Part shown: positions 11,855-54,921 of the stretch, one piece after another
Layout: every line of letters starts with the position of its first letter
How positions within the stretch are numbered: position 1 is the stretch's first letter
IMG/VR virus record: IMGVR_UViG_3300028048_000042
Length of the DNA stretch: 64,000 nt
Reading direction: 5' to 3' (one strand)
Source: a virus
Lineage: Duplodnaviria > Caudoviricetes
Notes under the pieces: generated by a model
Told to the model about the DNA's origin: nothing
Database searches by the model: none
What the model saw: only the letters and a program-made list of their open reading frames with translations
Position numbers and translations under genes: made by a program

Positions 11855-11883
11855 TTGACAAAATAATCATGTTGTGATATAAT
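11855..11883 (+). promoter_or_regulatory. sigmaA consensus promoter
   Basis: TTGACA-17-TATAAT with extended TG. Confidence 0.85.
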
Positions 11884-12916: not shown

Positions 12917-12995
12917 GAATAACAAAAAAGAGGTGCATCTTGAAAACGTACTACACCTCTTTTTTGTTAAATATGAATATTTTTTTAAAAAACTG

Positions 12996-13024
12996 TTGAC
13001 AAATCTTTATATATGTGTAATAAT
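12996..13024 (+). promoter_or_regulatory. sigmaA-type promoter
   Basis: TTGACA-17-AATAAT with extended TG. Confidence 0.65.
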
Positions 13025-13075
13025 ATAATCAAACGAAATCAAGATAAAACTTATAAAAAAAGGAGATTGTATAAA

Positions 13076-13882
13076 ATGTTGACGAAGGTAGCAGAAAAGA
13101 GATTTGCAAACGGTGTTGTATATGCATTGAGAACGGAAGATGGGTATCTGATTGAAACCACTGATACTTTCCTTCCTTACTATACTAAGGATGCTATTGG
13201 GAGAAAGCAGAATTTCCTTAATAACAAGGATTTGGGTTCGCGTAAAGAGCGTTGGATGATTGGAGTTTCAACCATGAGTGGCTGTTGTGTTGGTTGCCAA
13301 TTCTGCGCCACTGGTAATATGAAGAAATTCCGCAATTTGACGGCTGATGAAATTGTAGAACAGGTAGAGTTCATTATCGGCACTCACAATACCCCTGAGA
13401 CTCGTCAGAATCCCTCAGAATCGCTTGAATTTAAGATTAACTATACTCGTATGGGTGAACCGTTCCTCAACATTCAGAACGTGCGAGAAGCGATTACACG
13501 GCTTGATAAAGAATTGTCTGATACCAAAATCCACCATTATATCTCTACGATTGGAATTAAAGGTAGTGATTTTTCTTGGATTAAAGACAATATCACGTTG
13601 CAGATTTCTTTGCATAGCCTTGATGATGAACGTAGAAACAATTTGATTCCTATTAAAGGGAAAATGACAATTGAAGAGCTTGGTCAGATTCGTACCAAAT
13701 CTAATTTGAAAACAACTATCAATATGACATTGGTAGATGAAAAAGATTTTGACATTGATAAAATGAAGAAGTATTTTGACCCCAAATATTTCTTTGTAAA
13801 ACTGTCACCTATCAACGAAAACAATATTTCAAAGAAAAATCATATGGGGAAAGGAATCATTGAAGGGGTGAATATTGTTTGA
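13076..13882 (+). CDS. RlmN/Cfr-like radical SAM enzyme, N-terminal (large) part lacking the C-terminal AACGQL segment
   Basis: VSTMSGCCVGCQFCATG, RNLTADEIVEQ, MGEP, IST.G and ISLH motifs; start at ATG 13076 after aaggag SD. Confidence 0.85.
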   Translation: MLTKVAEKRFANGVVYALRTEDGYLIETTDTFLPYYTKDAIGRKQNFLNNKDLGSRKERWMIGVSTMSGCCVGCQFCATGNMKKFRNLTADEIVEQVEFIIGTHNTPETRQNPSESLEFKINYTRMGEPFLNIQNVREAITRLDKELSDTKIHHYISTIGIKGSDFSWIKDNITLQISLHSLDDERRNNLIPIKGKMTIEELGQIRTKSNLKTTINMTLVDEKDFDIDKMKKYFDPKYFFVKLSPINENNISKKNHMGKGIIEGVNIV

Positions 13883-14331
13883 CACCAAGAGAATTAAGAC
13901 AATTTGAGGAATTAAAAGCAGTTTATGATATTTTTTGTGGTGCGCACAAAAATGAAGAAGATACGGAAGAAGAAGATATGGATGATTTAGAAAAAGAATT
14001 AGAAGAGTTTTTTGACAATATGTATATACCTAAAGATAAAGATATGGAGGAAGAAGAAATGAGAACACCTAATGATGATTTTGATATGGACGATTTGATT
14101 ACAGGTGATGGAACGTCAAAATATGTAGTGGATTTGAAGGATGTGCTTGATTTTTATGATTTCCGAAAATCCAAAGGTTCAAATGTAACATCTCGTGATT
14201 GTTTGAAAATTTCCAACCAAGAGCTTGTACAGAATTTTGTTAAATTGACACGAAGAATGAGTCAGGAATATGGTAATGATAAAGAAGGATTTTTGAACGA
14301 CATCAAACGTGTAATTGAAATGGAAGGATGA
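13879..14331 (+). CDS. acidic hypothetical protein
   Basis: 150 aa ORF overlapping neighbours by 4 nt. Confidence 0.6.
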   Translation: MTPRELRQFEELKAVYDIFCGAHKNEEDTEEEDMDDLEKELEEFFDNMYIPKDKDMEEEEMRTPNDDFDMDDLITGDGTSKYVVDLKDVLDFYDFRKSKGSNVTSRDCLKISNQELVQNFVKLTRRMSQEYGNDKEGFLNDIKRVIEMEG

Positions 14332-14744
14332 CAAAAATGACTCTGAACGATGAATTTAAGAGTATTACTGCTAATCGAGCAAAAGAAAAAAAAGAATTGG
14401 ATTTTATTCTTGACTACATTGAATTTAAGACAAGTAAAGGGAATCATTGTACGCTTGGAGATTTTAAAATGAACCCCAATTTTAATCAAGAAACATTGCA
14501 ACTCGTGGCACAGGGAGCACGGCTTTTGCAGTTGCTTGGTGATGATTGGAAAGAAAAAATGGAAATGTTAAAAAATGTTAATACGCAGGGCGTTTGTGAT
14601 GGTTCAAGTGCAGGTTGTTTTGTAAGAAAACGTACTTCAGGCGGTGATGGCTGTCATGGTGGTTCAACGTATCTTGTGTGTGATAATGCAAAATATTGTG
14701 ATAAGAAAAATTGTGCTCTTAAACGGCGTGTAGAGGTGTATTAA
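14328..14744 (+). CDS. hypothetical protein with Cys/Gly-rich C-terminus
   Basis: CDGSSAGC...GGDGCHGG...CDNAKYCDKKNC. Confidence 0.65.
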   Translation: MTKMTLNDEFKSITANRAKEKKELDFILDYIEFKTSKGNHCTLGDFKMNPNFNQETLQLVAQGARLLQLLGDDWKEKMEMLKNVNTQGVCDGSSAGCFVRKRTSGGDGCHGGSTYLVCDNAKYCDKKNCALKRRVEVY

Positions 14745-14746
14745 TC

Positions 14747-15613
14747 ATGATTAAATTGGCTAAGTATTATTGTTCATTGAATGATGAAGAGCCGAAACGA
14801 ATAAAAGAACCGCAGATAAATGTATATGTACGTTTGCAGAATGTTTGCAATGCAGATTGCGACTTCTGCGAATTCTGTGGTCAGGCGAAAAAATTTGATG
14901 AAGAAAAATTCAAAGCCCTTTTAATTAAACTACATACTACCATCAAAATTAACAAATTATCATTTACAGGTGGAGAACCGACATTAGATTTTCCCTTATT
15001 CAAAAGGATGCTAAATTTTGTTAATGAATTAGACAAAGATATATTTACAGTAGTAAATACGAATGGTCTTCATCTAAAAGAATTAGCAGAGCTAGATATA
15101 AATAGTGTAGCTTTGTCGAGACATCATTATAATGATGAATTAAATCAATCTGTATTCAAAACGAAAGTGCCAACGAGTGAAGATATACGTTTATATAACA
15201 AAAAGAATACCAATTTACATTTATCGTGCAATTTGGTAAAAGATTATATAGACAGTCAAGAAGAAGTGTTAAACTATCTTGATTGGTGTGATAGTGTAAA
15301 TGCAAGGGATATAGGATTTGTAGGGTTGATGAAAACCAACGATTTTTGCAAAGAGCACTATATAGACTACAGTGTAGTAACAAAAAACCATAAACGAATT
15401 TGGAATAGTAAAACGTATAGTCGTCACGAAGGGAAAAATTTAATTTGTCGTTGTGGCAATTACGTATTCATGGGAGAAAATGGATTAGTTAATTTTTATT
15501 GTCGGCATTATATGTGCAATAACAACAGTGAAAGCACATTGGTGTATGACATTGATGAATTCAAGAATGGGTTTACAGGAGAGAACGTAGATGGTTGGAT
15601 TGTAAGCAGGTGA
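14747..15613 (+). CDS. radical SAM protein
   Basis: CNADCDFC, TGGEP and NTNG motifs. Confidence 0.9.
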   Translation: MIKLAKYYCSLNDEEPKRIKEPQINVYVRLQNVCNADCDFCEFCGQAKKFDEEKFKALLIKLHTTIKINKLSFTGGEPTLDFPLFKRMLNFVNELDKDIFTVVNTNGLHLKELAELDINSVALSRHHYNDELNQSVFKTKVPTSEDIRLYNKKNTNLHLSCNLVKDYIDSQEEVLNYLDWCDSVNARDIGFVGLMKTNDFCKEHYIDYSVVTKNHKRIWNSKTYSRHEGKNLICRCGNYVFMGENGLVNFYCRHYMCNNNSESTLVYDIDEFKNGFTGENVDGWIVSR

Positions 15614-15786
15614 AGAAAATGAATATTAATGAAGAAGCTATTTCAAAGGAATACTATGTAGTTTTGAATGAGAAAAAAGAAATGGTCGAAAGCTATGTAA
15701 GTAGGAGTTCAGCAGAAGCTAGGGCAAAGTTTTTAAGCAAAGAAACAGGCAAAGAATATAGTTGTGCTGTTATGAGATATGAATGA
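15595..15786 (+). CDS. hypothetical protein
   Basis: short ORF in operon; true start probably MNINEE. Confidence 0.55.
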   Translation: MDCKQVKKMNINEEAISKEYYVVLNEKKEMVESYVSRSSAEARAKFLSKETGKEYSCAVMRYE

Positions 15787-15795
15787 GGAAACAAA

Positions 15796-16515
15796 ATGTC
15801 AAGAACTGTAAAATTCAAAGAATATAAAAGCAAGGATTCTAATGGAAAGATTGAAATTAAAAAGGTTGCATATTTCAGTGCCACATCAAGAGCAAGGAAT
15901 ATATTTGGCAGTGATATTGTAAAAGAAGCAATAATAGTAGTGGATGAATATGATGAAAGTGTTGGTAGTGAAGAAGAATGGAAAGAATGTGTAAAATCGA
16001 GTAAATATAATATTGGTAATAGAGAAGTTATGAATTTGACTAATAACGTTGTTTATGTAACGTTTAATAATGGAGAGACAGTTAGATTTTATGCTTCTGA
16101 CTTGGGAAGTATAAAAAAGACGGATGAAATTAAGGAAGAAGGGGAGGATATGAATAGAGGATTTAGTGTTTGCATTTTAGGTAGTGACAAAGGATGGGGA
16201 AAGAAATTCATGGATTTATGTGATAAACTTTCCATTCCAAGTGAAGCAACCAAAGAAGATTTCATTAATGCAGGCTTTAAGAATTTAGATGACGTTGTAT
16301 TTACATTTTTTCGTGCATTGCATTTGAAGGATAAATATCCTGTTAGCTTGACGATTAGAGCTGTGCAGAAGAATAAAAAAACGATTGTATTGACAGACAT
16401 TGATGTGTTGGATGAAAACTTTTTGCAACCACATTTTATAGATGAACAAATTTATCAGCAGTGTGAAGAATATTTCCGTATGCTAAAAAACAAAAATGTT
16501 TTATCAATTGATTAA
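15796..16515 (+). CDS. hypothetical protein
   Basis: gagga SD, 239 aa; internal SD plus in-frame ATG near 16150. Confidence 0.6.
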   Translation: MSRTVKFKEYKSKDSNGKIEIKKVAYFSATSRARNIFGSDIVKEAIIVVDEYDESVGSEEEWKECVKSSKYNIGNREVMNLTNNVVYVTFNNGETVRFYASDLGSIKKTDEIKEEGEDMNRGFSVCILGSDKGWGKKFMDLCDKLSIPSEATKEDFINAGFKNLDDVVFTFFRALHLKDKYPVSLTIRAVQKNKKTIVLTDIDVLDENFLQPHFIDEQIYQQCEEYFRMLKNKNVLSID

Positions 16516-16523
16516 AAAAATTG

Positions 16524-16552
16524 TTGACAAATCCTTTCTTTTGTGAGATAAT
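16524..16552 (+). promoter_or_regulatory. sigmaA-type promoter
   Basis: TTGACA-17-GATAAT with extended TG. Confidence 0.7.
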
Positions 16553-16580
16553 ATGATTAAAGGAAGGGGAGCGTGAAAAT

Positions 16581-17093
16581 ATGGAATTTGATGTAAAATT
16601 CAAATATAAATGTGGTGAGTATTACAATAAAAAAGACCCCACGAAGAAGATAACTTTGCTTAAAAGAAGATTAATTCCTTGTGAATCAAGAGGTGTATAT
16701 GGCAAAAATTATTTGATTGAAAGAGATGATAGAACGAGAGATTACATCAAAGAGAATGATTTACCGATAGAAGAATATGGTATTGAAGAAGACAATACAA
16801 ATAACTGTTTAACGATTAATAGCAAATATGAAATTGGTCAAAACATAAATTTGTATAAACGACTTTCAGGTACAAACATTAAAGTTAAGATTGTAGATAT
16901 ACAAGTTAAGGTTACGGATATACGGTTAAAAAACAAAAGTGAAAATTTTGTTTTTTGTGATTATCTTATTGACAACCCTGATACAGAGCAAAGATTATGG
17001 ATGAATTTAGAGGATGACTTGTATGAAAAGGAAATTATTACAAACAAAAGAAAAAAATCTTTAAAAGGATTTTTTAAAAAATTTTTTAAATAA
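16581..17093 (+). CDS. hypothetical protein
   Basis: SD present, 170 aa. Confidence 0.65.
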   Translation: MEFDVKFKYKCGEYYNKKDPTKKITLLKRRLIPCESRGVYGKNYLIERDDRTRDYIKENDLPIEEYGIEEDNTNNCLTINSKYEIGQNINLYKRLSGTNIKVKIVDIQVKVTDIRLKNKSENFVFCDYLIDNPDTEQRLWMNLEDDLYEKEIITNKRKKSLKGFFKKFFK

Positions 17094-17122
17094 TTGACAT
17101 TCATATGATTTCATGATATAAT
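17094..17122 (+). promoter_or_regulatory. sigmaA consensus promoter of the 42-aa AACGQL gene
   Basis: TTGACA-17-TATAAT with extended TG. Confidence 0.85.
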
Positions 17123-17154
17123 GAATATATAAAACAAAAAATGAGGTGGATAAA

Positions 17155-17283
17155 ATGGAAAATATTAAAAAGCAGTTGGAAGAAAATGGGTATGATTATG
17201 CGGTAGCAATTGCTACGGAAGCTGAAATTAAGAATGGAGCTGCTTGTGGTCAGCTTGCCATTATTGTTGAAAACGAAGAATAA
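17155..17283 (+). CDS. 42-aa protein equivalent to the C-terminal catalytic-Cys segment of RlmN/Cfr (not in ORF track)
   Basis: MENIKKQLEENGYDYAVAIATEAEIKNGAACGQLAIIVENEE; gaggtg SD; own promoter and terminator. Confidence 0.8.
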   Translation: MENIKKQLEENGYDYAVAIATEAEIKNGAACGQLAIIVENEE

Positions 17284-17288
17284 TTCAA

Positions 17289-17334
17289 AAAAAACCCAAT
17301 CAATTAAAATACATTCTTAATTGATTGGGTTTTT
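17289..17334 (+). terminator. intrinsic terminator
   Basis: aaaaacccaatcaattaa-loop-ttaattgattgggttttt. Confidence 0.85.
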
Positions 17335-18186: not shown

Positions 18187-19020
18187 ATGTCTGCAAAAAT
18201 TTTATATGGAAAAGAGTACGCCGATAAGATTAAGCAAGAAGTAAAAGACTACATTAATAATAAAAATGTAGGACTTGCTGTTATTATTGTAGGTAGTGAC
18301 CCTGCTAGTCAAGTGTATGTTCGCAATAAAGCAAAAGCATGTGATGAAGTAGGTATTACAAGTACAACAATTGAATTGCCTGAGGAAAGTACAAAAGAAG
18401 CAATTATTGCTGAAATTCACGCATTGAATAATAATGATAATATTTCAGGTATTCTTGTACAGTTACCGTTACCAAAACATTTGCGTGAATTTGAACAGGA
18501 GATTTTAGATGAAATCTCCCCAAAAAAAGACGTAGATGGATTTTTGCCGATAAATGTTGGTAAACTTGGTATTGGCTTAGATTGTGTTGCTCCATGTACT
18601 CCATCAGGTGTTATTAAAATGCTTGAAATGGAAAATATAGATTTTAATGGCAAAAATGCTGTTGTGATTGGTCGTAGCAATATTGTTGGGAAGCCAATGG
18701 CAAATATGCTATTGAAGAAGAATTGCACCGTAACAATTTGTCATTCTCGTACACAGAATTTGAAGTATTATACAAAAAATGCTGATATTGTTGTGGTAGC
18801 AGTTGGTCAACCTAATTTTTTGACTGATGACATGATTAAGAAGGGTGCTATCGTTGTTGATGTGGGCATTAATCGTGTAGATGGCAAACTTGTTGGTGAC
18901 GTTAATTTTGAAACGGTTAAAGAAAAAGCAAGTATGATTACTCCTGTACCAAAAGGTGTCGGTGCATTAACAATTGCAATGCTTTTACATAACACAATGA
19001 TGTTGGATAAAAGAAAGTAA
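18187..19020 (+). CDS. folD: bifunctional methylenetetrahydrofolate dehydrogenase/cyclohydrolase
   Basis: YVRNK, GILVQLPLP, KDVDG, PCTP, GRSNIVGKP, VDVGINR and TPVPKGVG motifs. Confidence 0.97.
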   Translation: MSAKILYGKEYADKIKQEVKDYINNKNVGLAVIIVGSDPASQVYVRNKAKACDEVGITSTTIELPEESTKEAIIAEIHALNNNDNISGILVQLPLPKHLREFEQEILDEISPKKDVDGFLPINVGKLGIGLDCVAPCTPSGVIKMLEMENIDFNGKNAVVIGRSNIVGKPMANMLLKKNCTVTICHSRTQNLKYYTKNADIVVVAVGQPNFLTDDMIKKGAIVVDVGINRVDGKLVGDVNFETVKEKASMITPVPKGVGALTIAMLLHNTMMLDKRK

Positions 19021-19526: not shown

Positions 19527-21620
19527 TTATCTCCATCTATATCTTCCATGACCTGCTTTTGGCATAGTGGAGCGTTGACCTGAATTCGTAGCGAAGTTAG
19601 CCAAAACGTCAGCATCACAAACGTCATCATGATAACCTGAAGGGGCTTCAATTTTTTTATTAACAGAAAAACCTGTAGTAGTCTGTTCAAGGTCAGCCCA
19701 TTCACCAATCATACGGTGATAATAATTAACGTTATCTTTACCTGCGCATTTTGTTGGTGAATTTAAGAATCTTTCTTTTGTAGGGTAGAAGAAACGACCA
19801 TTATCAAGTTCTTGTCGCCATTTGCCGTACATGGCATTTTTCATATTCATACCTGAATTGGTATATCTATCACGAGAGTTGAAGATGATACCTTCTACAT
19901 TACGCATACCATATTCATCTTGTAAAGTTTGAACAACTGCCGCACCACAGCCTGTATAATCAGCAAAGATTTTTGAACATTTAAATCTAGGATTTGCGCC
20001 ACCTAAAAGTCCTGCTATATAGTACATTTGTTCAGGATAAGTAGCATCTTTAAATTCTTTACCAAATACTTTATTTTTAGTACCATCACGATTAATACGA
20101 AGGACAGAGATTTGGGTAGCATCACCTTCAGGATTAGCACCTGCAAAGTCGATACCTGCCACATAATGTTCACCAATAATACCGTGGTCTAGCCAATCGA
20201 ATTCACCTGAACGCATTTTATCTACTTGAACTGAAGTAAGGAATTTACCTGCGCCATCAATGAATTCAAGCATGTACTGAGTACGGAAGTCTTCAATATC
20301 CAAGTTTCCTTCTGTCCAAACTTCAGGATTATTTGGGAACATTTCTTCTTTTAGAGCTTTAGGCATTGCCTGCTCTACAATAAACTTTGAATACGGACGA
20401 ACGATACCTGTTTTGGGGTCAGGAAGATAAATAGCACCCAAAGCCCAAGATTGAGCACATTGAGTCCAATCACGTTTAATAACAGTCCATTTATTACTAG
20501 CTTTACCTTCTACACAGTCATAGAAATGATTTCTAGTTTTAGGAGTACCAATTTTGACCAACTTAGCGTTTGTAGCACCGCCCATAGGTACAATTCGCTC
20601 TGACCAAGTATAATCAGAAACTTTTTGAGCCTCATCCAATACGATAACATCAAATGTCAAACCTTCGATATTGGATTGGTCAGAAGCAGAAACGGCACAT
20701 ACATAAGAACCATTATCTAATTCGACTTTATCTTTTGTTATTTTGACAATTTTGTGATTTAATTTATCTTCGTTCATTTGGAAGAATGTAGATAAACGTC
20801 CAATAGAAACTTCTGCCTGTTGCAAACGTGGTGTAAAAATACCAATGCGCATACAAGGGAAATTGTCAATTAAGAATCCACAGAATGAAGAAATAGATTC
20901 AGTGTTATGTACTACGGTATAGTCTTCAAGCATGAACAATTTATCTTCACTATCTAAGGTAAAACCGTAGTAATTTGCTTTTCTCTTTTTTACAACAATG
21001 AATCTATATTTTGTGAAGCTAGTTAAATCTTTAGACATTCTCCATCCAAAAAGATTTTCTCTTGTTTCTTTTTTTAATTTTAAATAATCTTTTATATTGA
21101 TATTTACAATATGATTATCAAAAGTCATCAATGATAAAATGTGAGACTCGTTAACTGTGTATTCAGAGTTATCAAAACCTTGAATTTTATACATAGTTTC
21201 TTTGCCACGCCCTAAATCAATAACTGTTGTGATATTACCAAATGGAGAAATTAATTTATCACCAACTTTGATGTCTTCAACTTTTTTTATTGATTTATCA
21301 GCCATCAAAATTTTTGTACCTTTGGCAAAGCATTTACCTGCCTGACGAGACATCATGCCTGCAACCATTTTTAATTTTGGATTGCAGACAGCACGAATAA
21401 GTGCTGTTTGATTCTCATGTAATTTTTGAAATTTTATAGGTAAATGACCACGTAATACATTTTCCACGTATTCAATAGGGTCAATTCGATTTAAAAATTT
21501 ATGATACATGAAATCATCTAATGGCATACCGTTAATTGTATTGTCTTGGCTTACTAAAGAGATTTCATCTTTGATTGCAGATACATTGTCTTGTATATGA
21601 ATCAATGAATTATTTTCCAT
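19527..21620 (-). CDS. terL: terminase large subunit containing a mini-intein
   Basis: SRQAGK|T Walker A, VLDEAQ Walker B, AGIDFA RNase-H nuclease motif, DYTGCG and HDDVCDA; start MENNSL after aaggag SD. Confidence 0.93.
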   Translation of the reverse strand: MENNSLIHIQDNVSAIKDEISLVSQDNTINGMPLDDFMYHKFLNRIDPIEYVENVLRGHLPIKFQKLHENQTALIRAVCNPKLKMVAGMMSRQAGKCFAKGTKILMADKSIKKVEDIKVGDKLISPFGNITTVIDLGRGKETMYKIQGFDNSEYTVNESHILSLMTFDNHIVNINIKDYLKLKKETRENLFGWRMSKDLTSFTKYRFIVVKKRKANYYGFTLDSEDKLFMLEDYTVVHNTESISSFCGFLIDNFPCMRIGIFTPRLQQAEVSIGRLSTFFQMNEDKLNHKIVKITKDKVELDNGSYVCAVSASDQSNIEGLTFDVIVLDEAQKVSDYTWSERIVPMGGATNAKLVKIGTPKTRNHFYDCVEGKASNKWTVIKRDWTQCAQSWALGAIYLPDPKTGIVRPYSKFIVEQAMPKALKEEMFPNNPEVWTEGNLDIEDFRTQYMLEFIDGAGKFLTSVQVDKMRSGEFDWLDHGIIGEHYVAGIDFAGANPEGDATQISVLRINRDGTKNKVFGKEFKDATYPEQMYYIAGLLGGANPRFKCSKIFADYTGCGAAVVQTLQDEYGMRNVEGIIFNSRDRYTNSGMNMKNAMYGKWRQELDNGRFFYPTKERFLNSPTKCAGKDNVNYYHRMIGEWADLEQTTTGFSVNKKIEAPSGYHDDVCDADVLANFATNSGQRSTMPKAGHGRYRWR
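20904..21332 (-). mobile_element. mini-intein (143 aa, no homing endonuclease) in the terminase Walker A motif
   Basis: begins CFAKGT, has block B TVNESH, ends VVHN followed by T. Confidence 0.92.
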
Positions 21621-21716
21621 ATAATATTGCTCTCCTTTTGTAAAAGGTTTTAACATAAAAAATATAACAGTTTCTATATTTTTTATGTGGTATAATGAAA
21701 AAAAATTCATGGAGGT

Positions 21717-22133
21717 TTGTATATGATAAGTATATATCAAAAATTCAAAGAAACAATGAAAGAATTATCGAAAAAAGCAGAAATTACTTGGATAAAAAAT
21801 AATTATACTCCTTTAAATGGTGTAGGAGTAAAAGGAACATGGAATATCAACGTAACAGGAAATGCAGGTAGTGCAGATGTTGTCTCATGGGATGGTATTG
21901 AAAATAAACCAACATCTTTTACTCCTGTGCCACATAATCATGATAGCTCTTATCCTTCAAAAATAGGTAATGGGGCAAGCGGAACTTGGAATATTAATAT
22001 TACAGGAAATGCCAAAACAGCCAATAGTGCAAATAATGTATCTTGGGAAAATGTATCAAGTAAACCAAAACTTGTAATTGTAGAATCGTTTGATAAAGAA
22101 AATGGAGTGCTGAAATTAAAAAGTTTAAATTGA
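21717..22133 (+). CDS. tail-fibre-like repeat protein
   Basis: two GTWNINxTGNA...VSWxxxxxKP repeats typical of tail fibres. Confidence 0.7.
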   Translation: MYMISIYQKFKETMKELSKKAEITWIKNNYTPLNGVGVKGTWNINVTGNAGSADVVSWDGIENKPTSFTPVPHNHDSSYPSKIGNGASGTWNINITGNAKTANSANNVSWENVSSKPKLVIVESFDKENGVLKLKSLN

Positions 22134-30022: not shown

Positions 30023-30292
30023 ATGAAAAGATTGGTTCGTTTGTCAGCATTAGATATGAAAAAATTAGAAGAAGATTATTTGAAGATGATTGAGAAGGAA
30101 AATCAATCATCTTCTCCTTCTAATAAACCAACATATAAATTAACTGACAAAGAAAAAATGAATGATGACGAAAAAACATTTTTCCCATCGACAGGGCTTT
30201 TAGTTGAATATGATGATAATCAAGTAGATACAAATCCTAGAGGTGGAATACCTGGGCCTTGGGCGGCTTCATTAAGATGGATTGGAAGATGA
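30023..30292 (+). CDS. hypothetical protein with MKRL leader
   Basis: MKRLVRLSA start, SD. Confidence 0.65.
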   Translation: MKRLVRLSALDMKKLEEDYLKMIEKENQSSSPSNKPTYKLTDKEKMNDDEKTFFPSTGLLVEYDDNQVDTNPRGGIPGPWAASLRWIGR

Positions 30293-30296
30293 TGAA

Positions 30297-31262
30297 ATGA
30301 GATTTATCAAATTCGATAAGAAAAATTATCGTATAAGATTTCATTCAAGGTGTAAGAATTACAAAATAGAATGGTATTTTGGTAATATATGTAATTCGCA
30401 TTGTTCGTATTGTTTTGATAAAGACAGTCGAAAAACGTGTTATCGAAATATGACGAAGGAAGAAACGGATAAAGTAGTTAAATTCATCAATGATTTACCT
30501 CCATTATATGAATTATTGTGTTTAGGTGGAGAACCATCTTGTTTTAAATATTTAGAATATGGGTTAGATAAGATAAAACATGGGTGTGCGATAACGATTT
30601 TAACAAATGGTAAAGATGAAGAATTTGTAAAAAGGATGTTAAAACGTGGAACAAAAAAGCAACCGATGCACGTTGATTTAACTGCACATTCTGAAGAATT
30701 TTTAAAAGACAAAAAAAACAATTTAGAACATTTGGGTAGATTAATCAATTACAAAAATAACAATCCATATAGTAGATTAGCATTTCGTATAATGTTAGAT
30801 GGAGAAAAAACAATGGAGTATAAAGAATTAGTAGAATTCTTATATAACAACATTGTTCGAAATCATAGTGGATTAGAATTACACGTATCATTTATTTATC
30901 GTGAAGGAACTCCGAAAGAATTTATCAATAATATTCTTACCACAACAAAGTTTGATGAAGAAATTGGTGAATTTTTAAAGAGTGAATTAATGGCGCAAAG
31001 GAGTTCGTCATTAAAGAACAATTGTCATTATGGCAAGAAGTGTCCTGTATTAGAACATTTTGCATATATAAGGTTGGATGGTAGATTGGACGCAAGACCT
31101 TCATGTACAGAGAATGACAGTGAATTAACACATAAGTCGATATTTGATGATGATTTTGATTTAGAAGAAGAAAAAGAAAACATCAAATGGATTTGTCATA
31201 AAAAACATGAGCAAAATTGGGGACTATGTGAGCACGTATATGGGCAACTGAGGGAAGGATAA
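30297..31262 (+). CDS. radical SAM protein (tandem paralog 1)
   Basis: CNSHCSYC, LGGEP and TNG motifs; C-terminal Cys cluster. Confidence 0.88.
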   Translation: MRFIKFDKKNYRIRFHSRCKNYKIEWYFGNICNSHCSYCFDKDSRKTCYRNMTKEETDKVVKFINDLPPLYELLCLGGEPSCFKYLEYGLDKIKHGCAITILTNGKDEEFVKRMLKRGTKKQPMHVDLTAHSEEFLKDKKNNLEHLGRLINYKNNNPYSRLAFRIMLDGEKTMEYKELVEFLYNNIVRNHSGLELHVSFIYREGTPKEFINNILTTTKFDEEIGEFLKSELMAQRSSSLKNNCHYGKKCPVLEHFAYIRLDGRLDARPSCTENDSELTHKSIFDDDFDLEEEKENIKWICHKKHEQNWGLCEHVYGQLREG

Positions 31263-31265
31263 AAT

Positions 31266-32213
31266 ATGTGGAAGAAATATACAAAAGATTTGCGTATAAA
31301 ATTCCATTCAAGAATGTCTTATTATCGCATTGAATGGTATTATGGCAATATTTGTAACCAAAGGTGTTCATATTGTTTAAACAATCATACGTATTCTGAT
31401 TATTATAAAAATGTAACGAAGGAACAAGTAGATAAAGTAGTTGATTTTATTAATAATTTTCCGAAACCGCTTTTTGATATACAATTTATTGGTGGAGAAC
31501 CATCTTGCTTTAAACATTTTTTCTATGCATTGGAAAGAATTAATCGCAGAGGAAGAATTAATGTCATGAGTAATGGTGCGGATGAAGAATTTATAGAAAA
31601 ATTACTTTCTATGGGTACAAGGAATAATCCTGTATTAATTTGCGTTTCGCCACATTATGAATATTATTTAAAAGACAAAGAAAAATTTTTAGAACATCTT
31701 GAACGAATAGCGAAGATGAATTTAAAATATGAATACGGCGACCTTGAATTCAATGTATTGTTAGACCAAGAAAAGACAAAAGAATACAAAGAATTAGTTG
31801 AATGGGTATATCATGTGGCACGAGGAAAATACAAAGTGTGTTTTGTTAGTTCTTATGTTCGCAGAACAAGGGATGCTAAAGAAGTAGTTAAGAATTATGC
31901 AATCACTTCAATTTTTGATAAAGAAACAAGGGATTACATTCGTGAAGACTTTGGTGGAGCAAGATTAGAGTATTTAAGACATAATAACCATTGTGGGGAA
32001 ATATGTCCTGTATTTGAAAATTATGTATTTATTAGAATGGATGGAAGATTGGAAGCTACAGGATGTGAGCAACCAATTATTTCAAATAAATCCATTTATG
32101 ATGATGACTTTGATTTAGAAGAAGAAAAACGTCAATTAACACAGGTTTGTAAATGTAAAAGGCAACCAAATAACGGAATGTGTGACCACGTACATGGATT
32201 ACCACCTGATTAA
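31266..32213 (+). CDS. radical SAM protein (tandem paralog 2)
   Basis: CNQRCSYC, IGGEP and SNG motifs; colinear with the upstream paralog. Confidence 0.88.
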   Translation: MWKKYTKDLRIKFHSRMSYYRIEWYYGNICNQRCSYCLNNHTYSDYYKNVTKEQVDKVVDFINNFPKPLFDIQFIGGEPSCFKHFFYALERINRRGRINVMSNGADEEFIEKLLSMGTRNNPVLICVSPHYEYYLKDKEKFLEHLERIAKMNLKYEYGDLEFNVLLDQEKTKEYKELVEWVYHVARGKYKVCFVSSYVRRTRDAKEVVKNYAITSIFDKETRDYIREDFGGARLEYLRHNNHCGEICPVFENYVFIRMDGRLEATGCEQPIISNKSIYDDDFDLEEEKRQLTQVCKCKRQPNNGMCDHVHGLPPD

Positions 32214-45167: not shown

Positions 45168-46247
45168 ATGATTAAATATTTTTCAAATAAGGTTGATTGG
45201 CTTAGTGTAAGACGTAATGTTATTAAATGGGTTGAAGAAAATCTTGATAGCAATGCTTTTTTACATGGCAAAGCGTCAAGAGAATTTGCAGATAGAATTA
45301 AAAACTTTATCGGTAGTAAATATTGTGTTTTGACGAAATCAGGCACTCAGGCTTTAGCTGTAGCATTAAAAAGTTGTGGCGTTGGACAAGGTGACTATGT
45401 TATTACAACTCCATTTACTTTCATTGCTACAATTAATGCAATTAAATTGGTTGGAGCAGAACCAATCTTTGTAGATATTAAAGAAGATACTTTTAATATT
45501 GATGAAAATAAGATTGAGGAAAAAATTACTGATAAAGTAAAGGCAATTATGCCTGTGGATATTTTTGGTAATCCTTGCAATTATGATGCAATTTTGGCTA
45601 TTGCAAAGAAGCATAATCTGAAAGTTATTGATGATATGTGTCAGGCAATGACAGCAGAATATAATGGTAAAAAGTTAGGTAGTTTTTGTGATGCTTCATG
45701 TGTATCATTCTATCCAACTAAACCTTTTGGTGGGTTTGGCGAAGGTGGAGCAATATTCACCAATGATGATGAAATCTATAAAATGGCAAATTCTTATTTA
45801 GACCACGGTTCAGATGGTAATGCTAATTGCGTAATTGATGGAACAAATGGCGCATTTGATATGATACATGGTGTTTTCTTAAATGAAAAAGCAAAAATGA
45901 TGTTACCACAAGTATTGAAAAAGAGAAATGAATTAGCCCAAATTTATCATCAAATGGAAGGTGTAACTTGGCAAAAACAAGAACCAAATGCTGTAAGTGC
46001 TTGGTGTAGAATGCAGGGTGCTTTCGATTGCGAAGAAAATTTTGAATTAGCAAAGACTATATTTGAATTTGATGATTGTTATTCAAGAGATATTTGTGAT
46101 AATACTTTATATGCTCAATATCGAGAAGAAAATCCTGTATCTGCAAAAATCGCACATACATATGTTAGTTTTCCTATGTATACCTATCTTGCTGTCAAAG
46201 ATTTAAAAGATGCAGTGGAAAAATTTAACTCTTTGAGAAAAAAATAA
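45168..46247 (+). CDS. DegT/DnrJ/EryC1/StrS family PLP-dependent sugar aminotransferase
   Basis: SGTQAL, TPFTFIAT, GAEPIFVD, DDMCQA and SFYPTKPFGGFGEGG (PLP lysine) motifs. Confidence 0.93.
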   Translation: MIKYFSNKVDWLSVRRNVIKWVEENLDSNAFLHGKASREFADRIKNFIGSKYCVLTKSGTQALAVALKSCGVGQGDYVITTPFTFIATINAIKLVGAEPIFVDIKEDTFNIDENKIEEKITDKVKAIMPVDIFGNPCNYDAILAIAKKHNLKVIDDMCQAMTAEYNGKKLGSFCDASCVSFYPTKPFGGFGEGGAIFTNDDEIYKMANSYLDHGSDGNANCVIDGTNGAFDMIHGVFLNEKAKMMLPQVLKKRNELAQIYHQMEGVTWQKQEPNAVSAWCRMQGAFDCEENFELAKTIFEFDDCYSRDICDNTLYAQYREENPVSAKIAHTYVSFPMYTYLAVKDLKDAVEKFNSLRKK

Positions 46248-46523
46248 AAATTTTTAAAAATACGCAAATATTTATTAATTTTTTGCGTATTTTTAATTTA
46301 GAAAGCGTTAAGAAAAACGTTCAAAAAAAATGTGCGTAGGTGTAATAAACGACATTTTTGAGTGTATTTTTTTAATGTCAAAGAAGAAAAAAGAAAGTGT
46401 CAGTCAGACAAAACAACTTATTATAATTTATTAACGTTTACAGCAATTATCACGTTTTGTGGGCTACACTTCTTATAATACAAAAAATTTAGTTTAAAGA
46501 AAATTATGGAGGTGTATCTTCTA

Positions 46524-47030
46524 ATGGCAGGTGGAAATTTTATTTTTAAGCCAACTGCGGATTCTACAGAGTATGTCCGTGCTGCTTATGAAGGTGTAAT
46601 TAATGGTCTTTATGACGTAAATGTTGCAAAGGCAAAAGAAGTTAAAGGCGAACTCGCAGGTAAATTTGCTGCAATCGCTGCTGATGGTACTGTAACTCTT
46701 GCAGGTGATAAGGGTAAAGGTGCTGTTGGTCTTATTCGTGAAGATTTGATTGATATGGAAAACGCTTCTGCTAAAGCATCATTCTATATGCTTGGCATGG
46801 GCGGTGAATATCACGTTTCTGCAAAACGTCTTGGTGCAGATATTTCTACTTTCAAAGTTGGTGAGGAAATCACTACAAATGCTGACGGTGCTATTGTTCC
46901 TGCAGCTGCAGGCGATAAGGTACTTGGCACTGTGGTTTCTGTTGGTGAGTTCCGTATGGGTAATATGAAGGAATGGGCAGGCACAGAAGCTAACGGCGGT
47001 CTTTTCCTTGGTTTCATTATGCATGTTTAA
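46524..47030 (+). CDS. capsid decoration/minor head protein
   Basis: immediately upstream of MCP; Ala/Gly-rich; ggagg SD. Confidence 0.65.
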   Translation: MAGGNFIFKPTADSTEYVRAAYEGVINGLYDVNVAKAKEVKGELAGKFAAIAADGTVTLAGDKGKGAVGLIREDLIDMENASAKASFYMLGMGGEYHVSAKRLGADISTFKVGEEITTNADGAIVPAAAGDKVLGTVVSVGEFRMGNMKEWAGTEANGGLFLGFIMHV

Positions 47031-47052
47031 TTAGTAGGAGGTAAAAAGAATT

Positions 47053-47898
47053 ATGGCTATGACTCAAGAAGAACAGGAATTCCTTATCTCCGAAGCATTG
47101 GAGACAAGTGAAGGTCGTGCGGCATTGGCTTCCTCAATGGCTAACCCAATCCGTACATCATTGGATTATCAGGGTATCGCTCGTAAATTGCTCGTAGTAG
47201 ATGCTCTCCCACAGGGTGCTCTCCCTGTTTATGACCGTGATGTTGATGCGAAAGCATTCATCATCTCTAAGCGTGGTCAAGCTCCTGACCAGCTCATTGA
47301 AGGCGAACGTGTTCAGGTTCCAACCTTTGAGATTGTTTCTCACCCACTCGTTCGTTTCTCTCAGATTAAGGAGCGTCGTTTCAACATCATTGACCGTGCA
47401 CAGCAGCGTGCTAAGTCTGATATTATGGCTGTTGAGGATGAAACTGTATTCTCCCTTATCGACAGTGCAGCTTCTGCTGTTAATACTGTAACGGTTTCTA
47501 AAGGTGCTCTTACTCGTGATGCTCTTACAACTGCTTTTAAAGAAGTTGAAAAGCATGACCTCCCTGTTACAAAGATTGTTATGAACGCTCAGGCTTTTGC
47601 TGACATCCGTAAATGGGGTCAGAATGAGTTTGACCCTGTTACTCAGCACGAAGTTCTTCAGACTGGTAACTTCGGTCATCTTTGGACAGCAGAAATTCTT
47701 ATTTCTAAGAAAGTTCCTGCAAATACAGTCTATGTTATGTCCGACCCTGAGTTCGTAGGCGTTATGCCTGTTCGTCAGGATATTCAGGTAATTCCTGCTG
47801 ACGAGCCTGAAAAACTTCGTGTAGGTTGGGTTGTATACGAGGAAATCGGTATGTCTGTACTCAATGCACAGGCAGTTGCTAAGATTGAAATTCAGTAA
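47053..47898 (+). CDS. major capsid protein (HK97 fold)
   Basis: LASSMANPIR..LDYQGIARK.LVVD.LPQGALPVYDRD signature; highly biased codon usage; strong aggagg SD; terminator follows. Confidence 0.88.
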   Translation: MAMTQEEQEFLISEALETSEGRAALASSMANPIRTSLDYQGIARKLLVVDALPQGALPVYDRDVDAKAFIISKRGQAPDQLIEGERVQVPTFEIVSHPLVRFSQIKERRFNIIDRAQQRAKSDIMAVEDETVFSLIDSAASAVNTVTVSKGALTRDALTTAFKEVEKHDLPVTKIVMNAQAFADIRKWGQNEFDPVTQHEVLQTGNFGHLWTAEILISKKVPANTVYVMSDPEFVGVMPVRQDIQVIPADEPEKLRVGWVVYEEIGMSVLNAQAVAKIEIQ

Positions 47899-47996
47899 TT
47901 GATTTCTATATAAAATAAAAAAAAGACTAGAAATGTTTCTAGTCTTTTTTTTTGTCGTTTCTATATATAATATGTGTAAAAAAAAGGAAGATAAAC

Positions 47997-49259
47997 ATGG
48001 GAAAAAGTATATGCGTTGTCGGTTGTGGATATGTTGGTTTGCAATTGGCATTAGCTTTTCAAAAGCACATTCAGGTATATTGTGTAGATATTAACGAAGC
48101 AAGGATTGAAGCTTTCAAAAAAGGCATTGATAATACAGGTACAGTAGCTTTTTGTAATGCAGAAGAAGAATTTAAAAATATTAAATTTGAAACGGATATT
48201 AAGGCTGTGCCAACAAATATTGATACATTTATTGTATGTGTGCCAACTCCTGTTGATGAAACACATACGCCAAATTTAACTGCTACAAAAAGTGCTTCAA
48301 GTAGTGTGGCGAATGTCTTAAAAAAAGGTGATTTGGTTGTATTTGAATCGACAGTAGCTCCATTTACAACTGAAAAGATTTGTGTTCCTATTTTGGAAAA
48401 AGAATCAGGATTAAAATGTGGTGATGATTTTTGTGTAGGGTATTCACCTGAACGTTTACAACCTGGCACAAAAGGTAAAGGAATTTTGGAGATTGTAAAA
48501 CTTGTATCAGGTTACGATAAAACATCATTAGAACGAGTGTATAAGTTGTATAATACTATTTTGCCTGATGATATGTTGTGTTGTTGCAATACAATGGCTG
48601 AAGCAGAATTGTCAAAAATAATGGAGAACGTTAATCGTGATGTAAATATTGCATTAATGAATTATTTTAAGTTGGTTTGCGATAGATACGGTATTGATTA
48701 TGAAAATGTATTTAATGCCGCCGCCACAAAATTCAATTTTAATCAAAATGTTACGTATGGTATGGTTGGTGGACATTGTATTGGTGTTGACCCATATTAT
48801 TTAATTGATTTTTGTCAGAAAGACAAAGACTTTTATGATGAACAAAAAGACATTTTGCTAACTGCAAGAAGAATTAATGAATATATGCCTTATTATTTAG
48901 CAAAGAAAGTTCACAAAGCACTTGGCGAAACAGGTGAAGGAAAAGTAACAATTGTTGGTTTTACATTTAAAGAGTATTGCAGTGATACACGCAATACTAA
49001 AGCATATGATTTATATAAACACTTGCTTGATTTCGGATATGATGTTGCTATTTATGACCCTAAAGCAGATGCAACCGAAGCAAAAATTTTGTATAATGTT
49101 GATATTTTGCAAGAAGAAATGCCGAATAACAATGATTGCATTGTATTTACTTTGAATGATATTGAATTAGTTGATTTTGATGTAGATAAAAAATTGGCTA
49201 ATGGTGGAGTAATTGTTGATTTTAAAAATGTTTTAACAAAGAAAAAAAGTATTAATTAA
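47997..49259 (+). CDS. UDP-N-acetylhexosamine 6-dehydrogenase (WbpO/WecC/TviB family)
   Basis: GCGYVG Rossmann motif, CVPTP, ESTV, YSPER, AELSK..EN and GGHCIGVDPYYL. Confidence 0.93.
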   Translation: MGKSICVVGCGYVGLQLALAFQKHIQVYCVDINEARIEAFKKGIDNTGTVAFCNAEEEFKNIKFETDIKAVPTNIDTFIVCVPTPVDETHTPNLTATKSASSSVANVLKKGDLVVFESTVAPFTTEKICVPILEKESGLKCGDDFCVGYSPERLQPGTKGKGILEIVKLVSGYDKTSLERVYKLYNTILPDDMLCCCNTMAEAELSKIMENVNRDVNIALMNYFKLVCDRYGIDYENVFNAAATKFNFNQNVTYGMVGGHCIGVDPYYLIDFCQKDKDFYDEQKDILLTARRINEYMPYYLAKKVHKALGETGEGKVTIVGFTFKEYCSDTRNTKAYDLYKHLLDFGYDVAIYDPKADATEAKILYNVDILQEEMPNNNDCIVFTLNDIELVDFDVDKKLANGGVIVDFKNVLTKKKSIN

Positions 49260-52648: not shown

Positions 52649-53821
52649 ATGAAAAGACTTGCTAGTACAGAATTGACAGTTGTACACAGTCGTGAAGATA
52701 TTCCATCAACGGAAATGAAAAGTCTTTTTCTTGCAGGCCCTACTCCAAGAAAAAAGCATAATCTTGAATGGCGTTCGGAAGCAATTAAAATTCTTAAAGA
52801 ACTAGGCTATAATGGTATTGTATATACACCAACTGAACGTAAAGGTGAATTTGACCGTAATGTTCTGAAAGAGCAGTGTGCATGGGAATACAAGACAATG
52901 ATGGCTTGTGATGCTATTGTTTTTTGGATTCCTCGACAAAAACGACAAGATTTTGAAATGATTGCATTAACTACTAATGTGGAATTTGGTCGTTTCTTTG
53001 AGTCAAATAAAATGTTCTGTGGTGCTCCTAATGACGCAAAATCAATCGAATATTTGAAAATTATTTCTGAAAATAGATATGAATGGACAAATACTTTGCG
53101 AGATACACTTAAACGAGCTGTAGATTATCTTGGTGAAGGTGTATATCGTGAGGGAGCAGAGTGTTTAGTTCCTAAACATATTTTTGAATCTGCTCAATTT
53201 CAAAATTGGTATAAATCTCATAAGCAGAATGGAAATCAATTAACTGATTTTAAGACTTTGTTTGAATTCATTGCTCCTTATTCAAAGAAAATGTTTATGA
53301 CGATTTTTAAACCTGATGTGTTCATTGAAAAAGAAAATCGCACAAAAAATAATGAATTTGTAGTTGCAAGAACAGATGTATCATATATCTGTGCTTACCA
53401 TAAGACCAAAAAGGAAACTAAAATTCTTTTATGTGAAGAATTTAGAAGTCCTGTTGTAAATGATGATTCAATGGTTTATGAACTTGTGGGCGGTAGTAGT
53501 GATAATCCAAATGACGATGAATTGCAAGTTGCCGCAAATGAGTTTGAAGAAGAAACAGGCGTGAAATTAAAAAAGAGCAGATTCAAGAAGGTTGATATTA
53601 AACAGTCTGCAGCAACGCTTTGCTCTCATAGGATTACACTTTACTCTGTTGAATTAACGGATGAAGAAATTAAACATTTTGAGGAAGATAAAGATATTCA
53701 CGGAGTGACGGAAGCAACAGAACAGATTCATCTTCATGTCATGACTTTGGAAGATGCATTAAAGAAAGTAGATTGGACAAACGCAGGTATGATTTTTGCC
53801 GCAATGAAAGGAAAAGAATGA
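52649..53821 (+). CDS. nucleoside 2-deoxyribosyltransferase-like / Nudix hydrolase fusion
   Basis: LFLAGPTPR..WR, Q..WE, D.IVFWIPR, TT.VEFG (NDT-like); EEFRSPV..YELVGG...AANEFEEETG (Nudix box). Confidence 0.85.
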   Translation: MKRLASTELTVVHSREDIPSTEMKSLFLAGPTPRKKHNLEWRSEAIKILKELGYNGIVYTPTERKGEFDRNVLKEQCAWEYKTMMACDAIVFWIPRQKRQDFEMIALTTNVEFGRFFESNKMFCGAPNDAKSIEYLKIISENRYEWTNTLRDTLKRAVDYLGEGVYREGAECLVPKHIFESAQFQNWYKSHKQNGNQLTDFKTLFEFIAPYSKKMFMTIFKPDVFIEKENRTKNNEFVVARTDVSYICAYHKTKKETKILLCEEFRSPVVNDDSMVYELVGGSSDNPNDDELQVAANEFEEETGVKLKKSRFKKVDIKQSAATLCSHRITLYSVELTDEEIKHFEEDKDIHGVTEATEQIHLHVMTLEDALKKVDWTNAGMIFAAMKGKE

Positions 53822-54921
53822 GTAATTATTTAAGAAAAGACATTTCTACAATTTTTGTTATGTTGGGTCATGAATGTAATTTACAATGTAAATATTGTTT
53901 GCAACATGACGTAGTAAATATTGCTTTGGATAAGCAGGTTAATCCTGATATTTATAATTTTATTTGTGAAACAGCTCGTAATCAGTCAACGCCGTTAGGA
54001 ATTCAGTTCTATGGTGGTGAACCATTAGTATTTTGGAATAAAATTGTGGAAATTGTAACAGAATTGGAAAGTAGAAATACAGGTAATAATATTTATTTCT
54101 CTATGATTACAAACGGTAAGTTGTTTGATGAAGAAAAGGTAAATTTTGTTAATGAACACAATATTGGTGTTTGCATTAGTTGGGATGGTAGAAATTCTAA
54201 CATTACACGAGGATATAATGTGTTTGAAACAAATAAAGAAAACATTTTTAAGATTAAAAACTTTTCCATATCAGGTGTAATGTCTTCTTATAATTATATT
54301 GGTGATTATTTGGAAGATGCAATTAATTTGAATCTTGATTACGTTAAAAATTATAATGGGCATACCATTCATGTAAACGTAGATGATTTGCTTGATATTA
54401 ATCTTCCAAATCCTGATTTAAAAGACTTTGATTATAATAAAGCATATGAACAAATGGAAGCATTATGCGATGAATATTATAATTATGTAAAGAATGGCGA
54501 ACGGTTAGAAGTAATTAAGGTTGAATATTTTGAAAGAAAAATCAATCAAATTCGAGGTGCAATTACTAGCAAACATTATCAACCATTGAGAGATAGATGT
54601 GGTAATGGTTGTGAAGTTATCAATATGGATTTGAATGGCAATCTGTACAAATGTCATAATACAGATGCTAAAGTCGGTACAATTTATGACAATGGATTTG
54701 ATGTTTTAAAACGAGTTTTTGATTTGGATATGGTAAATCATACAGCAGAAAAGTGCAATGAATGTCCTGTACAAATTATGTGTATGAATGGTTGTCCATT
54801 AGTAAAAGAAGCACCAAGGGAAGAGTTCTACTGCGCCATGATTAATATTATGAATTATCCTATAATGAAATTGGTTACTAGGTTGGGTGACGGAGTTGAA
54901 CGGAAAGATAACGAAAACTAA
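53818..54921 (+). CDS. radical SAM/SPASM domain peptide maturase
   Basis: CNLQCKYC, FYGGEP, ITNG and ISWDG motifs; SPASM CG.G...G.LY.CH...C..C....C..GC....C. Confidence 0.9.
   Translation: MSNYLRKDISTIFVMLGHECNLQCKYCLQHDVVNIALDKQVNPDIYNFICETARNQSTPLGIQFYGGEPLVFWNKIVEIVTELESRNTGNNIYFSMITNGKLFDEEKVNFVNEHNIGVCISWDGRNSNITRGYNVFETNKENIFKIKNFSISGVMSSYNYIGDYLEDAINLNLDYVKNYNGHTIHVNVDDLLDINLPNPDLKDFDYNKAYEQMEALCDEYYNYVKNGERLEVIKVEYFERKINQIRGAITSKHYQPLRDRCGNGCEVINMDLNGNLYKCHNTDAKVGTIYDNGFDVLKRVFDLDMVNHTAEKCNECPVQIMCMNGCPLVKEAPREEFYCAMINIMNYPIMKLVTRLGDGVERKDNEN

Follow-up and report, generated by a model that had tools for sequence, protein, structure and literature searches.

The stretch of viral DNA analysed here (64,000 nucleotides, one strand of the IMG/VR record IMGVR_UViG_3300028048_000042, Duplodnaviria, Caudoviricetes; hereafter the window) carries a gene for an RlmN-like protein and, further downstream, a gene for a mini-protein of 42 amino acids (aa), and these two genes very probably encode one heterodimeric radical S-adenosylmethionine (SAM) enzyme in which the 42-aa protein contributes the final helix and strand of the barrel. 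This split design is common to hundreds of phages. The window itself comes from a large phage that is rich in AT (32% GC) and has genes for terminase and portal proteins, and its sequence was matched in bovine and pig gut metagenome sequencing runs. An earlier note, made from the letters of the window, had proposed a two-component enzyme whose methyl-carrier cysteine sits on a separate mini-protein, and this proposal is now supported by the co-occurrence of the two genes, by fusions in both orders, and by co-folding of the two proteins.

The large subunit belongs to the radical SAM superfamily, as it matched PF04055 with 35 bits (above the cut-off of 29.5) and carries the cluster motif C70/C74/C77, which is invariant in the family, together with the motifs RNL..EIV.Q, RMGEP, and ISLH and with N247, the counterpart of RlmN N312. 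Its AlphaFold model (predicted local distance difference test score, pLDDT, 93.5) superposed on Escherichia coli RlmN over residues 79-328 only (Z 22.5, root-mean-square deviation 2.8, 233 aligned residues), consistent with the earlier description of a protein with RlmN/Cfr motifs that ends before the C-terminal segment. Absent are the N-terminal RNA-docking domain (RlmN 1-78) and everything past residue 328, including the C355 segment; residue equivalences include E27 (RlmN E105), R59 (R114), G63 at the position of C118, and R125 at that of G177, as well as Q176, N216, and K242. In comparisons with protein family models, which the earlier note had suggested as a check, RlmN and Cfr were indeed the best matches, but both scored far below the family cut-offs (80 vs 290 bits for the RlmN model TIGR00048; 58-60 bits vs 530-550 for the Cfr families, e.g., 58 vs 550 for TIGR04432). 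A protein search with the large subunit gave 6,786 matches, some of them outside the family; nearly all of the best 120 are ~260 aa long, and 53 aligned homologues share the same new C-terminal motif. The large gene also shows a silent-site bias, which indicates purifying selection. In one locus (L120:143-1768) and in protein P0122, about 280-340 aa are inserted directly after the cluster motif, with a cysteine as the first residue in L120; the insertion is probably an intein.

The missing segment was found in the mini-protein: its 42-aa open reading frame (ORF) has a CGQL motif that occurs nowhere else in the six-frame translation of the window. Alone, this ORF matched RlmN weakly (52 of 2000 shuffled sequences scored equally well); a profile of 43 mini-protein homologues aligned to RlmN 326-359 (E 2.4e-4, with a probability of only 44%), so that the two proteins cover RlmN complementarily (79-328 and 326-359). 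This alignment and, as strong evidence, the co-occurrence of the genes uphold the claim that the ORF supplies the AACGQL-type segment. The mini-protein is acidic and consists of a helix, a strand, and a loop with invariant E24 and C31 (RlmN C355); C31 is invariant across all 43 homologues, and the carrier cysteine is supplied in trans only. Pairwise identities to the window copy range from 50 to 90%, and there is no variable core. In Vibrio phage D479 (L361:6803-7084, OZ195776.1), the mini-gene contains two tandem 33-aa cysteine-loop cores in one ORF; they differ by synonymous DNA changes and represent the sole duplicate among all loci examined.

When co-folded with SAM and the cluster, the large subunit and the mini-protein scored 0.83, compared to 0.01 for the best control (58 of 80 solved complexes attained the mark applied, as did 2 of 110 mismatched pairs), and the runs agreed in at least 86% of contacts with a partner pLDDT of at least 71. 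In the model, the peptide completes the barrel, a point that the earlier note had proposed to check by co-folding: its residues 13-17 pair with the large-subunit strand 239-243, its residues 27-39 belong to an interface that takes in large-subunit residues 77-79 (the cluster loop) and 124-126, and its core strand is buried, with ~160 contacts. Because a single-chain RlmN structure has been solved, likeness to it may drive the score, and the result thus shows likeness rather than binding.

Genomic co-occurrence provided strong support for the pairing. Wherever the large gene was located, the mini-gene was nearly always there too, namely in 80/80 viral loci, 36/37 loci from prokaryote genomes, and 146/156 further loci (sets that overlap one another), and every locus without a detected mini-gene has less than 1 kb of downstream flank; homologues of the large part that lack the mini-gene, which the earlier note had named as counter-evidence, were thus seen only where the flank is short. 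Both genes are present in 5/5 cultured phages, among which are Kehishuvirus tikkala, Moorella MTATph1, Vibrio D479, and Pectobacterium Arno18, all of which have laboratory hosts; in GenBank the two genes of these phages are mostly annotated as hypothetical proteins, and the Atlas gives the family automatic radical SAM names only. With 37 matches among 185,579 species genomes, the family is patchily spread over many phyla, as expected for phage genes. The two genes are separated by -1 to 4,643 nt in all three frames (spacers of 17, 19, 20, 21, and 59 nt together already span all frames), and the mini-gene lies upstream of the large gene in three loci (L107, L252, and L264). No Rfam intron matched the two-gene arrangement, and no joint between the two genes was seen in RNA contigs, although the latter is weak evidence since these contigs show presence only. 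Taken together, the all-frame spacers, the kilobase gaps, the reversed order, and the lack of an intron match led us to reject joining by frameshift, read-through, intron, or intein. Single-chain relatives were found among the 50% representatives of the protein search, with the peptide in the canonical place in two proteins (P0181 and P0183) and at the N-terminus of the large chain in a third (P0124); co-occurrence or fusion of the two parts is what the earlier note had proposed to look for in related phages. The permuted fusion is known from two runs with consecutive accession numbers, may reflect a lost stop codon, and folded from its single sequence with a pLDDT of 45, too low for the model to be of use. 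Scans of viral genomes with either of two distant single proteins (P0128, P0164) or with alignment A5 gave no matches. A divergent branch within the split clade (the P0205 group, with P0182, P0190, P0203, and others) retains the helix and strand as part of the large chain but lacks a carrier-cysteine loop, and the single locus inspected (L085:3039-3878) yielded no cysteine peptide; this locus and L122 share a cluster of kinase and pyruvate-kinase-like genes.

Though related to RlmN and Cfr, the two-piece enzyme is a new variant of class A radical SAM methylases that lies outside both. RlmN (TIGR00048; 3RF9, 3RFA, 4PL1, 5HR6/5HR7, and 6FZ6), the C2 methyl synthase of 23S rRNA A2503 and tRNA A37, shares with it the fold, the cluster motif, MGEP, ST, SLH, N312, E105, R114, and the AACGQL carrier-cysteine loop; unlike RlmN, the phage enzyme is encoded by two genes, lacks residues 1-78, has Gly at C118, and is phage-borne in a context of NAD (nicotinamide adenine dinucleotide) salvage. 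Cfr, the C8 methyltransferase of 23S rRNA A2503 (TIGR04432, NF000424; 9P0P), has the same class A radical SAM core (Z 16.4), and the phage enzyme differs from it in being in two pieces and in having no C105 equivalent, no N-terminal domain, and no sign of a resistance function. One change concerns the resolving Cys118 (Cfr C105), whose position is occupied by Gly in 100% of split-family lineages; in RlmN/Cfr, the cross-linked intermediate cannot be released without this second cysteine (PMC9692996). An extra cysteine of the window copy, Cys71, was considered as a substitute and rejected, as this position is Pro in 98% of the family. The barrel lining also differs from that of RlmN (M176T, G177R, A231Q, E278N, N307K, and I309S), R344 is replaced by Ala and D350 by an invariant Glu, and no separate gene for the RlmN N-terminal domain recurs among the neighbours. 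The polar residues of strands 2, 5, and 6 may resemble the nucleotide-binding lining of viperin/MoaA, which is a lead only, as viperin itself aligned with the large-subunit model merely at superfamily level (Z 11.6).

Fused relatives likewise lack C118 (they have T, I, or N there) and have the same pocket signature, and a FastTree tree places the split enzymes together on one side of a branch with good support, so the loss of C118 probably came before the split, as far as a fast tree with an imperfect root can tell. Among these relatives are phage sisters without the N-terminal domain (PHROG 24834-like; RMGEP...ITCGN, SNCGQ, and AACGQA groups), which are uncharacterised single-chain proteins that share with the split enzymes the absence of that domain and of C118, the R/Q/N/K pocket signature, and a Glu seven residues before the cysteine. 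One such sister family (L123-L202; ~265 matching IMG/VR loci) has RMGEP, Thr at C118, an ITCGN loop, and no consistent neighbours. There is a parallel in GrcA/YfiD, likewise a small protein of its own that provides a radical enzyme with its catalytic C-terminal segment, but its fold and chemistry are unrelated; GrcA serves to repair a full-length enzyme that has been cleaved, and the phage has no full-length copy. No published description of the split family was found in the literature that we could cover, i.e., outside subscription papers.

To survey the genomic neighbours of the pair, loci were reduced to lineages of <80% identity, with related lineages remaining. The commonest neighbours were genes for NAMPT/PncB and NMNAT-Nudix, followed by two second radical SAM families and a small methyltransferase. 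NAD-salvage genes (NAMPT/PncB, NMNAT, NadE, PncA, or NrtR) were present in 14/38 lineages with long flanks compared to 1/30 in the fused sister family (Fisher p=0.0009). They belong to both salvage routes, are directly adjacent in 14/81 lineages, and the linked lineages are spread over the tree, including deep branches. The two-gene pair was found directly behind NAMPT, with overlapping stop and start codons in L220 and L285; between NMNAT and NAMPT in L304 and L330; between pncA and nadE in L122 and L204; and behind nrtR in L209 and L222. On whole viral contigs, PF04095 was detected in 13/26 cases for the split family and 3/27 for the fused one. The commonest neighbours are the two genes of NARP2 (Nampt and Nmnat), a phage NAD reconstitution pathway reported in ~1.1% of phage genomes (10.1101/2024.02.11.579819); NARP2 was described without a radical SAM component, and the word 'radical' is absent from the NARP2 and NARP3 papers.

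These data suggest the following mechanism. The 42-aa protein would dock onto the barrel and bring Cys31 to the SAM/cluster site, where, by analogy with RlmN, a first SAM would methylate Cys31 and a second would yield the 5'-deoxyadenosyl radical and, from it, a Cys-bound methylene radical; we consider this carrier chemistry likely. The methylene radical may then attack the aromatic ring of a small phosphorylated molecule of the NAD family (NAD, nicotinamide or nicotinic acid mononucleotide (NMN/NaMN), ADP-ribose, or a relative) rather than rRNA or tRNA, with the acceptor bound by the polar and basic residues that newly line the barrel (R59, K120, N122, R125, Q176, K212, N216, and K242). The one-carbon unit would be released without Cys118, either through another base (e.g., E24 or E27) or because an electron-poor ring is easily deprotonated. 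The enzyme's purpose, beside NARP2-type NAD salvage, might be a modified NAD pool or altered NAD-derived signals that counter NAD-depleting host defences. Since there is no RNA-docking domain and no second cysteine, and since the context is NAD recycling, an NAD-related target is more plausible than ribosomal RNA, and radical methylation of an NAD-family nucleotide, with release in the absence of C118, is our best guess, albeit a tentative one. That a replaceable cysteine-carrier protein modifies NAD or an NAD-derived signal as a counter-defence, by methylation or by an S-CH2 weld to the peptide, is put forward with the same reserve; it would amount to class A radical chemistry that involves neither RNA nor a second cysteine.

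Several points weigh against this NAD reading. No NAMPT/PncB gene was found in the 64-kb window or in two complete gut jumbo phages (G007 and G009), and in Bacteroidales prophages the pair stands alone, so the system can do without NAD genes. In large phages, the variable regions may be where genes for NAD salvage gather along with further counter-defence genes; the fused control family is imperfect, having smaller genomes of which many look temperate; and the lineages in the NAD test are not fully independent. Lastly, the C118-type cysteine is indispensable in RlmN/Cfr (PMC9692996), and the replacement base proposed here is a candidate only.

The last point leads to the strongest alternative, in which the reaction would stop at the Cys-S-CH2-substrate cross-link, and the mini-protein would be used once and end covalently on a nucleotide, an NAD derivative, or a nucleic acid, with the large subunit reloading a fresh copy. 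Its model is the RlmN C118A mutant cross-linked to tRNA (5HR6/5HR7), which likewise has no resolving cysteine, although that mutant is an engineered dead end in one chain, whereas the phage enzymes have lost the cysteine naturally and throughout the family and have their carrier on a separate protein. The invariant Gly at C118, the persistent cross-link in C118 mutants (PMC9692996), the split kept throughout the whole clade, the two tandem cysteine-loop cores of phage D479, and the strong Shine-Dalgarno (SD) sequences on mini-genes in SD-using hosts are all consistent with such a consumable carrier. However, the fused relatives also lack C118 and would then be one-shot enzymes, the buried core strand (~160 contacts in the co-fold) argues against fast exchange, a private mini-gene promoter is not conserved, and the tandem core occurs in one phage only, so that we regard this alternative as having a real but minor chance of being correct.

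It is less probable still that the same two-piece enzyme acts on a substrate that has nothing to do with NAD, such as a protein, a DNA base, or some other metabolite, the NAD genes being fellow travellers in counter-defence regions. NAD genes are indeed absent from ~60% of the long-flank lineages as well as from the window; against this reading stand direct adjacency, the NAMPT overlaps (L220 and L285), positions between pncA and nadE (L122 and L204), and positions behind nrtR (L209 and L222), in phages of unrelated hosts.

A split RlmN/Cfr proper, methylating adenosine in rRNA or tRNA of host or phage, is rather unlikely. The closest solved fold and sequence are those of RlmN/Cfr, and the equivalents of E105, R114, the SAM-binding motifs, and C355 are retained; set against this are the scores far under the cut-offs (80 vs 290 bits, TIGR00048), the loss of the N-terminal domain, C118, M176, and R344, the acidic peptide, and recurrent neighbours that are NAD genes and radical SAM enzymes rather than RNA-modification genes. 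With these residues lost, the lining changed, and NAD genes nearby, we do not follow the earlier note in extending RNA-adenosine methylation from RlmN/Cfr to the phage enzyme.

Equally improbable is that the mini-protein is the precursor of a ribosomally synthesised and post-translationally modified peptide (RiPP), converted into an effector by the large enzyme, a second radical SAM enzyme, and a small methyltransferase. The small separate gene and the tandem core in D479 would fit such a role, as would the second radical SAM enzyme (nearby in 18/38 long-flank lineages vs 0/30 in the fused family), whose best solved match is the peptide epimerase EpeE/YydG (E 7e-8). Yet this match spans the generic radical SAM core only, the accessory genes are missing from most Bacteroidales prophages, and the peptide is homologous to the RlmN C-terminal segment, is fused to the enzyme in both orders, and has no variable core (50-90% identity to the window copy). 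Finally, a decaying pseudogene or an assembly artefact has a negligible chance, as the truncation itself is all that speaks for it. Against it stand homologues by the thousand, among which nearly all of the top 120 are ~260 aa long and share a new, conserved C-terminus, as well as silent-site bias, independent assemblies, and cultured phages.

In the window (Table 1), six ORFs, including a 55-aa ORF at 15619, separate the large gene from the mini-gene, rather than five unrelated genes as first counted; one of them encodes the second radical SAM enzyme, which is not unrelated, since its family recurs near the split enzyme in 14/81 lineages. In the closest relative (L001:9628-10552), the gene for this enzyme appears in two pieces (113 + 167 aa) and would be frameshifted or mis-assembled. 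At another locus (L086:8789-10004) and 24 others, the gene for a radical SAM enzyme whose cluster motif is expanded forms a cassette with a 148-aa methyltransferase-like gene; this cassette sits between the large gene and the mini-gene and also inside NAD operons (L087 and L209).

Table 1. Positions of the two-gene system and its associated features in the window
Feature	Position	Strand	Remarks
Hairpin, 16 bp	12920-12969		Upstream of the promoter at 12996..13024
Promoter, sigma-70-type (11/12, extended TG)	12996..13024	+	Large-subunit operon; consensus match only
Large subunit, 268 aa, RlmN-like radical SAM core	13076..13882	+	SD AAGGAG 13060-13065
Second radical SAM enzyme, 288 aa, optional accessory	14747..15613	+	
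Promoter, perfect sigma-70-type (12/12, extended TG)	17094..17122	+	Precedes mini-gene
Mini subunit, 42 aa	17155..17283	+	SD GAGGTG 17143-17148
Terminator-like hairpin, 18-bp perfect arms	17290..17334		Immediately 3' of mini-gene

The promoter, SD sequence, and perfect hairpin attributed to the mini-gene by the earlier note are all present. The idea of a separately and strongly expressed mini-protein holds only in part: the promoter is real in the window phage, but a strong promoter was seen ahead of the mini-gene in just 2/29 other separated lineages and the mini-gene is co-transcribed in most relatives, so that a private promoter was rejected as a conserved family feature. Near-consensus extended sigma-70 promoters were found at 11855, 12996, 16524, and 17094, and other genes of the window phage are also preceded by promoters similar to that of the mini-gene; the promoter regions 12979-13037 and 16507-16565 have 76% in common over 59 nt. 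The two-gene arrangement recurs in an independent bovine sample and is thus not an assembly error; the large gene of that sample has 23 listed differences, of which 21 are silent. Both genes were covered by RNA contigs of one bovine sample, where DNA carry-over is possible, and this coverage indicates presence, not an expression ranking.

Elsewhere in the window, radical SAM genes were found at 30282-31262, 31266-32213, and 53773-54921 in addition to that at 14747-15613, and the last of the three adjoins a gene for a protein with a nucleoside 2-deoxyribosyltransferase-like domain (52649-53821; PF15891). Genes for a DegT-type aminotransferase and a UDP-glucose/GDP-mannose dehydrogenase form a sugar-modification cluster (45168-49259) that possibly serves DNA or virion glycosylation. 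The gene for the terminase large subunit (19530-21740, minus strand) has an apparent intein insertion and lies near folD (18187-19020), a guanylate kinase gene (8391), and an M16 peptidase gene (22806).

In published descriptions, class A radical SAM methylases act on RNA as single chains and depend on two cysteines. The split family has one cysteine, gives its carrier a gene of its own, and has dropped the RNA-docking domain; it must therefore finish the reaction differently, and it probably acts on a different kind of substrate than RNA. The small size of the carrier, 42 residues, puts its synthesis, labelling, and titration within reach and thereby opens the methyl-carrier step to direct tests. 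If the target is indeed NAD or its breakdown products, the two-piece enzyme would represent new chemistry in the fight between phages and their hosts over NAD.

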